64,000 bases of DNA from Eledone cirrhosa (taxonomy: Eukaryota). The position numbers and the translations under genes are program-made. The DNA is taken from positions 196,850,001 through 196,914,000 of the forward strand of contig OZ024742.1 in assembly GCA_964016885.1 (NCBI GenBank), given 5' to 3'. Under the pieces are notes generated by a model. That model saw only the letters and a program-made list of their open reading frames with translations, was not told the DNA's origin and made no database searches. Position 1 is the stretch's first letter. Every line of letters starts with the position of its first letter. This document shows, in pieces, positions 19,034 through 49,113 of this stretch.

Positions 19034-19232
19034 ACCGTAGTTATGTAATAAACACCATTTAATAAACAAAATTTATTCTGATGAATGAAGACAGACATAA
19101 GTGTCAGCTCTTCAAGAAACCATTGGTAAATGAATTAATTATCTTATGTTATTTATTACATAATTAAAAAGCTCTGTAGCCTACATAGAGCACTCTCTTT
19201 TCCTTTATCTTTCCTACGGACATACTTCATTT
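19034..19232 (+). mobile_element. Hammerhead-bearing short element in (TA)n (Penelope-like pLTR remnant)
   Basis: HHR plus a tail homologous to the reverse complement of 34905-35000; (TA)n on both sides. Confidence 0.55.
19070..19136 (+). ncRNA. Type I hammerhead ribozyme motif
   Basis: aatttatt-CTGATGA-A TGAAGA..GACA taag TGTC..TCTTCA A-GAAA-CCATTGG-TA-aatgaatt; stems I, II and III pair; first pair of stem II is an A.A mismatch. Confidence 0.7.
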
Positions 19233-20215
19233 ATATATATATATATATATATATATATATATATATATATATATATATATATATATATAATATATATATA
19301 TATATATATATACATATAAATATATATGCCTACATACTTTATATATACTGTAAATGTGGTTGGTGTTAGGAAGGGCATCCAGCCGTAGAAAACCTGCCAG
19401 ATAGTCCTATATGAGCGAGACACGGTCACCCGACCAACCTTGCCTCAAGTGGGACAACTCCCGTCTAACCCATGGTAGCGTGGAAAATGGACGTTAAACG
19501 AAGATCACGATGATGACGATGATATAATGTATATATGTATATATATATATATATATATGTATGTATGTATATATATATATATTTGAGCAGAATCCCGTTG
19601 AAAAAGTGGCTTCCTTGTTCAATCATCTTACCAGAAGCCTAACATTCTTTATGGAAGCGGACAGTAATCGATTTATGGAGCCGCAGAAACCCAAATACTG
19701 GATTTTACCATCTCTCCAGGGGTCCGGGTAAATTTTCAATCACATATATTTTTATTTGTTTGACCCGAATTGCTTGATCGATTTTTTTTTGGCTGTGCGG
19801 ATGATTAGTTTAACCACCATCTCAGTGTGTTTGGCCTTTAACGTATGTTGTAGCTCTGATTCATATGAATCATCGAGCGCTTGCCACACATCTCGGAAGT
19901 TGTTTTTCGTTAATTCCTGAGCTGAAATTCGATTCTCAGCAATTTTATATATATATATATATATATATATATATATATATATATATATATATATATATAT
20001 ATATATATATATATATATATACAAAGGTTATATTTAATTTGTTGGAATTCAACAAACTTAAAAGTTTTATAACTGATATAAAACACTCAACAGTTTAGTG
20101 GAGTAATATATATATATATATATATATATATATATATATATATATATATATATATATGTATGTATGTATGTATGTATGCACAGGTATTGCACAATAGCAT
20201 TAATTAATAATTATT

Positions 20216-20410
20216 AATAATTGTTTCTACTTTAGGCACAAGGCCAGCAATTACCCAGTACATTACTGGTACTTTATTTTATCGACCCCGTAAGGATGAA
20301 AGGCAAAGTTAACCTCGGCGGGATTTGAACTCAGATCATAAAGAGACGTAACTCTATGCTTCAAAGCATGGTGTCCGACTCTCTACTGATACTGCCAATC
20401 CACCGCCCTT
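20216..20410 (-). mobile_element. Family-1 SINE
   Basis: Full-length match to the 2220 copy; further minus copies at about 21178-21352, 26110-26322, 33750-33955, 46095-46230, 50913-51098. Confidence 0.88.
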
Positions 20411-20805
20411 CTAATCCACCGCCCTTAATAATTATTAATAATGTTGTATCGTGCAATGACCATACTCGATAACGAGGGGGCAGCCATCATGTGTATTATA
20501 TATATATATTATGGAATACTGTTGGCTTCTTGCTACAATACTTTCTATACCTTTCATTTATATATATACATATATATATATATATATATACACACACATA
20601 TATATGCATTATATATATATATATATATATATATATACGGGGTAACAAATAATAGTTAAATGCAGTCCACTTAGGTGAAGTCCAGTTATGGTATTCCAGG
20701 TAGTGGATGATATTAACGCTTGGCTTGGTTTGACTCAACAAGGCGTTTTCATAGTGATGCTGCGGGTATGCCGTAATTCCTATGTTGTAAACACTTCGAG
20801 TAATA

Positions 20806-20974
20806 ATAAATCAGGAAAGAAGGTTGACATGGTTTGCTATACAAAAAAGGTTTAATCACATAGCTTACATCTGTTTCACTGAGCTGGTAGGTCTAGCTCA
20901 GTGAAACAGATGTAAGCTATGTGATTAAACCTTTTTTGTATAGCAAACCATGTCAACCTTCTTTCCTGATTTAT
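20806..20974. repeat. Perfect palindrome, 80-bp arms, 9-nt loop; contains 3' half of a hammerhead
   Basis: Arms 20806-20885 and 20895-20974; GAAAC-agat-GTA; abuts (TA)n. Confidence 0.9.
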
Positions 20975-21786
20975 ATATATATATATATATATATATATAT
21001 ATATATATATATATATATATATATATATATATATATATATATATATATATATCGGGTGTTATATATTGTGTGTGGGCGCCATGTATATATATGTTCCTGG
21101 GTCGATATGGTCAACTACATCTTTTCATGGTGGTGTACCAAGCATGATTGCAAGTCTCGTCAATGAAACCAGTAAAATAATTGTTTCCACTTTTGGTACA
21201 AGGCCAGCAATTATCCCTGTGTATTATTGGTCCTTTATTTTATCGACCCCGTAAGGATGAAAAGCAATGTTAACCTCGGCGAGATTTGAACTCAAACCGT
21301 AAAGGGATGTAACTCTATGCTACAAAGCATGGTGTCCGACCCTCTACGCTACTGAATGAAAATATGTATATTTATGCACGCACACATACACACACACCCT
21401 CAAACACAAACACAAACACACATACACCCCCTCCCCCACATATACATACACATACACACATCACGTCCTTGAATAAGACACTTTATTTCATGTTGCTCCA
21501 GTTCTCCCAGCTAGAAAAATAATGTGTTCACCTTCTACAAGTGGATGTATGTTTATTAAATGTATATTATATTACACACACACACTCCCCCCCCCCCCCA
21601 TATATATATATTATATATGATTTCCTTCAAATGAAACAGTTACAGTTCTAGTTCTGTAGAAGCCATTTCTATATTAAACATTTAGAGTCTTCTATGTATT
21701 GAGTACCTTACTTACTGTGGTTAGCCCCGATTGAACCCAGGCTGCTCATTTCTTACACCCCCTCCCACACACACATATATATATTT

Positions 21787-21930
21787 ATTAAAATAACAGA
21801 TTAAAGTTTAAGCAAAGAATCGGTACTTTCACCCTTAACTTTTAATCTGATATTTTAATAAAGATTTGTTCTAGGGTTCTTATATATTTGATATATATTT
21901 ATCCTTATCGAGCCCTCTTCCGATTTTACT
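21787..21930. repeat. Small fold-back repeat family in TA-rich zone
   Basis: About 27-bp inverted arms 21787-21860; pieces recur at about 47085-47130 and 47240-47293. Confidence 0.6.
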
Positions 21931-22114
21931 CCTCACATTTATTATTATTACTATATATATATATATATATAATGTAATAAATATATATAATGTAGGAGGT
22001 GAGTTTTATTGTAGTACAATAAAGCAATGCAGATATCGGATAAGAAGCATTCTACAGTTTGTAGGACTGGAGTATACATAATATATAAGATCAAAAGATG
22101 GTTAAATGAGTTCC

Positions 22115-22283
22115 ATGTCCCAAGGCTCTGATACCATCAACACTATAAACACAGAGCTGGCATATCTAAGAACTGGCTAACTGTCTGATGAGGTCATAGC
22201 CATTCAATGGCTATCATCGAAATATATATAGCAGTAAATAAACGATTATGAGTTCATGCAATTTACTTATGTTTCGTCATTAT
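22115..22283 (+). mobile_element. Solo copy of the HHR element also forming the 23187 palindrome
   Basis: Near-identical to 23358-23512; ends in (TA)n. Confidence 0.75.
22180..22235 (+). ncRNA. Type I minimal hammerhead ribozyme (palindromic loop III)
   Basis: actgt-CTGATGA-ggtc atagccat tca atggctat catc-GAAA-TATATA-TA-gcagt. Confidence 0.8.
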
Positions 22284-47460: not shown

Positions 47461-47790
47461 GGAAAGTTATATTTAAAATTGTTGGGTTACAACTAGTAAA
47501 TATTTATAACTGATATAAAAGCACTCGACAAATATTTGGAGTATATTTACAATATTAAATAAATGGAAACTATATTTATAAAACCATATTTATTTCATTA
47601 TATATATTTCAGGGATATCATATTAACAATATGCTATGCCTTCCTCAGACAAAATACAATATAAACAGTTTTATAGATAAATAGATTCGACATACCGTAA
47701 CAACATCGACTTGCATTTGAAGAGGCTTGTGCCAGTAATCTGGGGTGAGGGGAATCACCCCTCACCCCAGACCATTATAAGGGCCCAACG
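47461..47790 (-). mobile_element. HHR-bearing element, diverged relative of the 48297 element
   Basis: Homologous to 48490-48715 in reverse orientation; tail-only copy at 20021-20107; small hairpin at about 47739-47771. Confidence 0.7.
47591..47656 (-). ncRNA. Type I minimal hammerhead ribozyme
   Basis: tattttgt-CTGAGGA-AGG..CATATT gtt AATATG..CCT-GAAA-TATATA-TA-atgaaata. Confidence 0.78.
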
Positions 47791-47997
47791 TTATATCTAT
47801 GTATCTATCTAAAAAGAAAGACTAAGAATTATAGAGAGAGATCGCTAAATCTAATGCGGTTTTTTTCTCTCAAAAGACTCACAGGACCATAAGTATTACA
47901 TATGTAAAGTTTGAATTTACACACACACACACACACACACACACACACATATATATATATATATATATATATATATATATATATATATATATAGGAA

Positions 47998-48183
47998 AAG
48001 AGTCAAGACCCCGACGTCTGAACTCCGGCCGTTTCGATCTGAGTTCGGGTCTAGCTGTCGAAACGGCCGGAGCTCAGCCGTCGGGGTCATGACTCTTATC
48101 ACCTCACTGACGCTACTACCCTAAGTATCGAGTACTCTGGTGCGTTATGGTCCACCTGGTTTCTTACCATTCTTTCTTTGTTT
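47998..48183 (+). mobile_element. Fold-back half-hammerhead element (family of 24791)
   Basis: Hairpin 47998-48097 with GAAACGGC..GCCGTC-ggggtc; same tail as 24937-25013. Confidence 0.72.
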
Positions 48184-48327
48184 ATATATATATATATATA
48201 GAAGACCTTCTATATTAAAAGGTCTTCTATATTAAAATGTAGAAGCTCTTCTATATTAATATATATATATATATACATATATATACAAGATATTTATAAA
48301 TGGAAACTATATTTATGAAACCATAAT

Positions 48328-48393
48328 TATTTTATTATATATATTTCAAGGGCGACCAAGGTAAATTATGGTGCGCTTTCATCAGATAAAATA
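48328..48393 (-). ncRNA. Type I minimal hammerhead ribozyme (left arm of palindrome)
   Basis: Reverse complement of 48517-48582. Confidence 0.8.
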
Positions 48394-48516
48394 CAGATTT
48401 GTTTTATAAATAAATATTGACATACCCGGAAAAAAGACAACTTCACCGGTTGAAATTCGCTGGATAGTGAATTTCAACCGGTGAGGTTGTCAATATTTAT
48501 TTATAAAACAAATCTG

Positions 48517-48582
48517 TATTTTATCTGATGAAAGCGCACCATAATTTACCTTGGTCGCCCTTGAAATATATATAATAAAATA
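48517..48582 (+). ncRNA. Type I minimal hammerhead ribozyme (right arm of palindrome)
   Basis: tattttat-CTGATGA-AAG..ACCA..TGGT..CTT-GAAA-TATATA-TA-ataaaata; perfect 8-bp stem I. Confidence 0.82.
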
Positions 48583-49113
48583 ATTATGGTTTTATAAATA
48601 TAGTTTCCATTTAATAATATATTGTATATTTACTCCACTAACTTGTTGAGTGCTTTATATCAGTTATAAAAATGTTTAAGCTTGTTGAATCCCAACAATT
48701 TAAATAGAACTTCTACATATATATATATATGTATGTGTGTCTGTGTCTGTGTATGTTTGTATATATATATATATATATATATATATATATATATATATAT
48801 ATATATATATATATACTTATATATATATATATATATATACTTATATATATATATATATATATATATATATATATATATATATATATATATATATATATAT
48901 ATATATATATATGTATATATATCTATGTATATATATATATATGTGTGTGTATGTGTGTGTATGCGTGTGTGTGTGTGTGTGTGTGAGAATCAAAATGTAT
49001 ATTTTTTTCATCAATGCAAATCGAATATTTCTATTAAAACCCGTGTTCATTAGAAAGAAGAATGAAATACTTCACAATTGGGTAGAAATTGAAAGTTTAT
49101 AAATGGTACATAC

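Follow-up and report, generated by a model that had tools for sequence, protein, structure and literature searches.

The hammerhead ribozyme units in a 64,000-nt stretch of the Eledone cirrhosa genome (contig OZ024742.1, positions 196,850,001 to 196,914,000; hereafter the window, numbered from its first letter) are very probably the 3' ends of Penelope-like elements (PLEs) that carry open reading frames (ORFs). The units consist of a pseudo-long terminal repeat (pLTR) with an optional tail, and the parent elements are five Hydra-clade families and one family of the Neptune/Nematis type. We place the whole reading, in which PLE 3' ends sit in (TA)n tracts and were likely left there as short dead-end cDNAs, at about 85%. 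An earlier note, made from the letters alone, had read the units as a separate ORF-less or retrozyme-like system, which is not borne out, as each family is linked to an ORF and the window holds no head-to-tail arrays.

A structure scan requiring the core CTGAnGA..GAAA and stems I, II and III found ten type I hammerheads in the window. Nine have perfect cores (19078+, 22185+, 23285-, 23414+, 24434-, 24519+, 47648-, 48385- and 48525+), and the tenth (35073-, CCGATGA, a U4C change) was recovered when one core change was allowed, which also returned a weaker extra candidate at 47304. A pattern scan for C[CT]GA.GA in the window also counted ten. Block shuffles, 100 each, gave a mean of 0 motifs with 2-mers and of 0.01 (maximum 1) with 3-mers, and the window reversed and complemented gave none, so that the ten hammerheads of several families reported earlier are confirmed. 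The Rfam hammerhead family was absent among the 150 of 188 matches listed, which were mostly microsatellite-driven miRNA matches. The predicted cleavage triplets are GUA, AUA and CUU. Six of the ten motifs form three inverted pairs with their 3' ends outward (23102-23510, 24283-24706 and 48290-48715); the inverted pLTRs previously noted are upheld. TA-rich sequence was seen by eye on 12 of 14 unit flanks, the exceptions being the 24.4-kb unit, with (CT)n on its right, and the 47.6-kb unit at its 5' end.

Compared by sequence, the units with the ten motifs are of six families (A, A2, B, C, C2 and D) in four groups. The earlier count of about four families holds for the groups, while their supposed unrelatedness does not extend to the families, A (19070) and A2 (35007) being 71-76% alike in the 3' part and C2 (47591) and C (48517) about 79% alike. 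Stem pairings said to be kept between diverged copies are partly sustained for this last pair, in which, by eye, stem I differs only by G-U wobbles and stem II by one double change.

As had been proposed, copies were sought genome-wide for PLEs with reverse transcriptase (RT) and GIY-YIG domains, and each family leads to such an ORF. The parent layout is pLTR, tail, 5' untranslated region (UTR), ORF (RT, then GIY-YIG), 3' UTR and pLTR. Copies of family B run through a 1.3-kb 3' UTR into the ORF, and one locus (L049) presents pLTR, an 85-nt tail, 5' UTR, ORF, 3' UTR, pLTR and (TA)n in this order. The left arm of the family B pair in the window is 99.2% identical, along 255 nt, to the pLTR and tail that precede the L049 ORF, and together with the L049 layout this match identifies the tail as the sequence behind the upstream pLTR. 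For family A2, a copy at L210 is 95.8% alike across pLTR and tail and then enters the ORF, L019 is likewise a parent, and the window copy matches the L210 3' UTR at 91% over 1,168 nt. ORFs of family C precede units of 93-94% likeness at L284, L291 and L293, with PLE ORF matches in 8 of 14 stretches examined, and a unit behind a Hydra ORF at L141 matches C2 at 95% over 261 nt. Family D is represented by 4.2-kb tandems at L179 and L180, with the window's right arm matching pLTR and tail at 92% over 223 nt; its ORF contains the Pfam domains RVT_1 and GIY-YIG, and Pfam matched no domain in the Hydra-type ORFs. The tails of family A continue into a Hydra ORF at 16 of 30 loci selected because the tail does not run into TA; these 16 are 74-84% alike to the window copy. 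The closest relatives of family A reach the 5' UTR and start codon (L246) or the Hydra ORF (L231). The initial samples of families C and A were mostly short copies, and their parents were reached by walking along the 3' UTR or through tails not followed by TA. Additionally, the tail of a family F runs into an ORF start at L062 and L131, and a further Hydra family, E, has 722 open codons at L097. A pLTR in partial tandem, a tail and an inverted 5'-truncated copy were found at L049, L097, L180 and L019. The earlier identification of the motifs as minimal hammerheads of PLE type survives. A homologue search with one Hydra ORF gave 499 matches; among the 120 listed, the single named one was a bryozoan protein.

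Families A, A2, B, C and C2 share YRDD, a CxCX5C linker, a GIY-YIG domain without internal cysteines (no CCHH), CxxC before the E and CxH after the N. RWK is present in A and A2 and RWR in B, C and E, C2 having been seen without its N-terminus; GxKF occurs in none of the five Hydra families. DKT (as DKTN) is present in B, C and C2, and a motif pattern search found none in A and A2. The motif set of A, A2, B, C and C2 equals the published Hydra definition (PMC8557442, section 11), and we accordingly assign these families to that clade. Family D has GxKF, DKG, YLDD, a CX4CxxC linker, CxxC within GIY-YIG and CCHH. It departs from the Hydra definition and agrees with Neptune/Nematis as described in PMC8557442 in GxKF, DKG, YLDD, CX4CxxC, CxxC in GIY-YIG, the pLTR hammerhead and the tail; on these motifs it is classed as Neptune/Nematis type, both names being kept. 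Unlike published Neptune/Nematis elements, it has an upstream ORF of about 450 codons that overlaps the RT ORF in the -1 frame (L179, G000:C1:63258500-63264800; L180, 64256800-64262800). In both copies read the overlap lies at a T TTT TTA heptamer, a possible site of programmed frameshifting, and no strong stem-loop was predicted behind the heptamer in the two copies. Naiad/Chlamys was considered and rejected, as it needs an N-terminal endonuclease and no canonical hammerhead, whereas here the endonuclease is C-terminal and the hammerheads are canonical.

The units of the window are as follows (+ and - denote strand).

19036-19235, +: family A (Hydra-type) 3' end, a solo copy, preceded by an inverted tail-less end of 17 nt (19037-19054); core 19078, cleavage predicted after 19128 (GUA); hairpin at 19171-19191 in the tail (about 19160-19231).
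20003-20105, -: family C tail-only fragment between TA tracts.
20641-20974: family G palindrome, arms 20806-20890 and 20895-20974 joined within stem II; only the 3' hammerhead half; long tail on the left arm only.
21970-22116, -: 3' end with tail of another family (cluster c4), head to head with the following unit, no TA spacer.
22116-22280, +: tail-less 3' end of family B (Hydra), 97% to the L049 pLTR; core 22185, cleavage predicted after 22230 (AUA).
23102-23356, -: tailed left arm of family B, reaching the 5' boundary; tail 23102-23188, core 23285, cleavage predicted at 23240.
23358-23510, +: tail-less right arm of family B; core 23414, cleavage predicted after 23459.
23705-23862: half-hammerhead palindrome; tail on the right, related to the family E tail.
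24283-24478, -: tail-less left arm of family D (Neptune/Nematis-type); core 24434, cleavage predicted at 24406 (CUU).
24484-24706, +: tailed right arm of family D; core 24519, cleavage predicted after 24547; the tail, 24670-24706, is AC-rich.
24795-25012: family F palindrome (24795-24935) with right-arm tail (24936-25012); only the GAAA half motif.
34902-36591, -: family A2 (Hydra) 5'-truncated copy, 1,690 bp; core 35073 (U4C), cleavage predicted at 35018 (GUA); last 25 ORF codons 36590-36513, then 3' UTR, hammerhead and tail 34902-34985.
47461-47728, -: tailed 3' end of family C2 (Hydra); tail 47461-47548, core 47648, cleavage predicted at 47599 (AUA).
47995-48182: second family F-type palindrome; tail on the right arm.
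48290-48469, -: tail-less left arm of family C (Hydra), reaching the 5' boundary; core 48385, cleavage predicted at 48336.
48488-48715, +: tailed right arm of family C; tail 48626-48715, core 48525, cleavage predicted after 48574.

The unit size of 150-430 bp given earlier does not hold for the long A2 copy at 35007. That copy also gives the window a PLE ORF end, known from the DNA match and translation; a tblastn search of four PLE proteins against the window gave no match. Between TA tracts there are also pieces that probably derive from the ends of other PLE families, as palindromes, half motifs or fragments of tails, at 34455-34815, 46801-46991, 21775-21920, 47229-47310, 21620-21760, 34345-34400 and 48200-48262, and several recur at other loci.

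The inverted pairs follow a one-tail rule. Among pairs at loci not picked by a tail-bearing query, 69 of 78 have one tail, seven have two and two have none (p = 7e-13 against the 50% maximum for independent choice). Revision by eye showed that four family D two-tail calls were false, the arm entering TA, that one pair was two separate window insertions and that one no-tail pair belonged to another family, leaving one tail in 73 of 76. The pairs span 139 to 5,125 bp. Solo arms comprise 58 with a tail, 92 without and 2 unclear, in line with earlier reports that the tail is optional and often one-sided (PMC8557442; PMC3846280). With all families pooled, 151 of 160 tail-less ends adjoin at least three TA units, and the (TA)n targeting claimed earlier is supported by these ends as well as by the window flanks. 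Near-perfect inverted arms flanked by TA could also be expected of foldback DNA transposons (miniature inverted-repeat transposable elements, MITEs) or of assembly artefacts carrying incidental hammerheads. We give this explanation practically no weight: the motif count is far above chance, the arms are made asymmetric by a defined tail and differ by point changes, and the same ends occur on RT and GIY-YIG ORFs and in an independent public run (X1). The parent ORFs (L049, the D tandems and the C loci) and the tail geometry refute it.

Each family examined also has a fixed 5' stop, measured from the core at -44 in D, -73 in B and -84 in C, which is common to solo and paired copies with varied junctions. 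Of 29 family D arms in a core-selected set, 11 begin between -43 and -46 and 22 no farther out than -60; among short pairs, 17 of 22 arms stop at -44. For family B, in a partly biased sample, 12 of 24 arms start at -70 to -74 and six at -56, and family C arms pile up at -80 to -84. Palindromes usually have one arm at the boundary and the other shorter, and their joints show microhomology or small templated inserts. Contigs of run X1 on family B show depth steps and loose TA ends at both B positions, the depth not being a copy number. Family B sequence is also present in runs X4, X6 and X9 from other organisms, the X9 relative being diverged and of high depth with the same two 3' ends.

The boundary could have arisen in the same elements by random 5' truncation combined with an RT pause or a microhomology hot spot, the palindromes then forming by snap-back or antisense self-priming. 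Boundaries do lie on short palindromic, near-palindromic or TA-like words able to anneal, long inverted copies reach 4.7 kb, and a self-priming model has been put forward in PMC3846280. Snap-back should copy the tail a second time, whereas the second arm stops precisely at the proximal site, next to a TA tract; no listed short arm passes the boundary by more than 5 nt; and the joint at 21970-22280, where a tailed arm of one family meets a tail-less family B arm directly with no TA between, is easier to obtain from two templates. We judge this explanation to have a modest chance of being right.

Less likely still is that some short units, especially those with a tail and the most frequent palindromes, descend from masters of their own as non-autonomous, SINE- or retrozyme-like elements moved in trans by Hydra or Neptune proteins, so that the fixed 5' end would be the master's end. 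Fixed ends and recurrent identical junctions would follow from such masters, and short copies far outnumber long ones, as the family D arms within 60 nt of the core and the X1 depth steps indicate. pLTRs suffice for trans mobilisation in Adineta (PMC3846280), a 2026 preprint derives animal retrozymes from pLTRs (10.64898/2026.07.22.740005), and ORF-less tandem arrays of other families exist in this genome. Nevertheless, junctions mostly differ among loci, both arms stop at or short of the solo-copy boundary, 92 of 152 solo copies lack a tail and the window arms are 92-99% identical to ORF-linked pLTRs. Furthermore, the Anolis protein in vitro needs RNA about 55 nt beyond the distal start (PMC11167929), which is absent from the short copies.

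The tails of the Hydra families offer a candidate recognition feature. A motif search found a hairpin in 17 of 26 representative tails, set back a few bases from the tail edge and made of a 4-bp stem (RYTC pairing with GARY), a bulge of 2 nt on the 3' side and an inner stem; one further hairpin-bearing tail is visible by eye. An alignment of 16 of the 17 motif tails plus family F has 113 of 114 cells paired and double changes in 5 of 7 pairs, while slid controls pair at 25-61%. The search itself required the outer four pairs but not the inner three, which are paired in 16/17, 17/17 and 12/12 rows. The bulged hairpin is likely a protein binding mark. The family D tail lacks it and has an AC-rich loop instead. 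We found no earlier description of the hairpin in a limited literature search. A second copy of its 3' motif was seen by eye in the 5' UTR just before the start codon in families A, A2 and F (L246, L255, L019 and L062), and L255-L258 (G000:C2:169702700-169703500) form a 183-bp tandem array of family A tail and 5' UTR without hammerhead.

Returning to the reading as PLE 3' ends, we propose a mechanism to which we give even odds: reverse transcription from two internal sites to the RNA 5' end, with the short cDNAs joined head to head. A dimeric element protein would nick both strands of the TA tract, and RT would be primed at two internal sites flanking the tail, each target strand using one of them, with the bulged hairpin serving as the binding mark in Hydra families. 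A cDNA begun in the upstream pLTR would stop at the RNA 5' end, set by a transcription start in the pLTR, giving a fixed product of 150-260 nt. Two such cDNAs may be joined at their 3' ends through a few complementary bases to give palindromes, and a jump of the cDNA to the downstream pLTR would give long copies. The short cDNA would resemble retroviral strong-stop DNA. For Anolis Poseidon in vitro, PMC11167929 reports two internal RT starts flanking the tail, nicking and extension of both strands and a predicted dimer, and the PLE transcription start is placed in the pLTR in PMC8557442. More tentatively, and with somewhat less confidence than the mechanism itself, the genome may hold on the order of a hundred thousand PLE intermediates that record a one-tail rule, hairpin guidance, strong-stop cDNAs and a pLTR acting like a retroviral R region.

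Several points weigh against the main reading and its mechanism. The ORF-linked copy closest to the window's family A unit (L231) is only 84% alike, or 92% for the copy that reaches the start codon (L246), and none of the families A, A2, B, C, C2 and D yielded an intact full-length ORF in one piece, stops or frameshifts being present in the copies read. Clade names come from motifs and a comparison by eye with published reference proteins. Nine of the 26 representative tails have no hairpin motif by the search, and the hairpin rows are from partly related families, so that a shuffle count for them does not amount to a probability. Among the 76 revised pairs, two have two tails and one has none. 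Four D palindromes share a junction (identical at L183, L186 and L187, nearly so at L184), as a palindromic master copy would also produce, and PMC3846280 explains head-to-head palindromes by self-priming on an antisense template.

As monomers, the motifs are predicted to leave stem III open. Stem III is perfectly palindromic in 266 of 413 sampled motifs and within two positions of it in 132 more, and its predicted monomer probability is at most 0.04 in nine isolated motifs and 0.4 in A2. This fits the dimer-dependent, weak PLE hammerheads of PMC4209133, and the motifs would cleave only as dimers or with protein help. The Anolis hammerhead in vitro needs protein and is dispensable for insertion (PMC11167929). 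The predicted RNA of each of the three palindromic units is a single hairpin of -229 to -306 kcal/mol with a hammerhead stem probability of 0.0, the antisense arm being transcribed first whichever strand is read. Hammerheads of palindromic copies are thus predicted to be locked inside a double-stranded hairpin.

The density of the window is ordinary for this genome. Twenty arbitrary 10-kb stretches at round coordinates, 12 of them from the four largest contigs, gave 26 motif matches in nine stretches and none in controls; after one match with irregular long loops was dropped, 25 per 200 kb compare with 10 per 64 kb in the window, which removes the special clustering previously suggested. Extrapolated to the 3.0-Gb genome, this is 3.7e5 motifs (bootstrap 1.6-6.3e5). 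Exact core-pattern counts for three stem III classes were 80,656, 15,193 and 72,218, or 168,067 genome-wide, against 193, 5 and 1,192 when the patterns were read backwards; these counts ignore stems I and II, include a few motifs twice and, in the third class, tandem arrays of other families. One 39-mer of family D has 5,047 exact copies, and a family E RT query gave 42,067 first-look candidates genome-wide. For comparison, 2,000-9,000 minimal motifs per genome are given for Schistosoma, coelacanth and Xenopus (PMC4209133); axolotl is credited with up to 120,000 retrozyme copies (PMC7229834) and giant squid with 235 Rfam hammerhead matches (PMC6962438).

The element class is already known, and its scale here is unusual. 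The novelty of the system was overrated earlier: Hydra PLEs with hammerheads and (TA)n targets are already listed in PMC8557442, one of them from Octopus bimaculoides. This element, Hydra-1_Obim, is given in the supplement of that paper with a (TA)n preference and a canonical hammerhead. It resembles our families in its single ORF, RWK, DKT, CxCX5C, GIY-YIG without CCHH and CxxC/CxH around the E and N, in a hammerhead about 100 nt from the 3' end and in its target, and the ORFs look alike by eye. Together with the 3.0-Gb size and the TA-richness of the genome, this likeness fits the cephalopod setting named in the earlier note. The published Hydra entry has one octopus family with "no pLTR" and less than 3 kb (PMC8557442), whereas here at least seven Hydra families (A, A2, B, C, C2, E and F) have a pLTR and a 60-90-nt tail, 3' UTRs of 1.3-1.7 kb and units of about 4 kb. 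The new details are at least 168,000 matches, one-tail pairs, a fixed 5' stop per family and the covarying Hydra tail hairpin.

The metazoan PLE hammerheads of PMC4209133 are likewise type I with a palindromic stem or loop III, and mostly occur singly or as opposite-strand pairs 100-700 bp apart that were read there as truncated PLEs; the at least 168,000 matches found here contrast with the counts in those genomes. The Anolis Poseidon element PAc (PMC11167929) shares a tail between two internal RT starts, an AT-rich target and a stem-loop at the start, and the D tail is AC-rich too; it differs in belonging to another clade and in having a tail of 30-40 nt inside the ORF. Non-LTR retrozymes (PMC7229834; 10.64898/2026.07.22.740005) are similarly ORF-less units of 170-400 nt with a type I hammerhead, but are described as head-to-tail arrays giving circular RNAs, while those of the window stand alone or joined head to head, and they match ORF-linked pLTRs. 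With no head-to-tail arrays in the window, a retrozyme identity was rejected for its families. Elsewhere, family B units occur as a triple split by TA tracts at L007/L009. ORF-less head-to-tail arrays of retrozyme type, from families not in the window, are present at L300 (G000:C1:5737500-5741500, continuing to about 5751400) and L301 (C1:5540500-5544500), with one hammerhead per 466-bp or approximately 490-bp unit.

The value of these elements lies in their scale and testability. PLE replication is poorly understood, and in this genome one insertion geometry recurs tens of thousands of times in two clades and can be counted, with predictions for the transcription start position, a protein-bound hairpin and a different start site for each target strand. 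If the reading is correct, this is among the densest hammerhead populations described, with one core or more per 18 kb, and its perfect 150-200-bp hairpins, numbering in the tens of thousands, could feed RNA editing, a known feature of cephalopods, or small-RNA pathways. Annotators of such genomes should bear in mind that what looks like a MITE or SINE, a short palindromic repeat within a TA tract, may instead be the end of a PLE; the main text of a 2026 Octopus vulgaris annotation makes no mention of hammerheads or Hydra.

Finally, other repeats are present nearby. An 8.5-kb minisatellite (9178-17655) has 338 copies of a 25-bp unit, and an (ATATG)n array (51721-53368) has 330 copies. A SINE-like repeat of about 190 bp has more than a dozen copies in the window (1627-1860, 2212-2400, 20217-20404, 21173-21354, 26100-26317, 33744-33956, 36809-37145, 50911-51098, 51532-51716, 53363-53548 and 54738-55529), two of them head to head at 36797-37159; ARAGORN found no tRNA in it, and elsewhere it is inserted into PLE copies. 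A 233-codon fragment at 40538-41240 is the end of a LINE RT ORF, with a 654-codon relative in L292.

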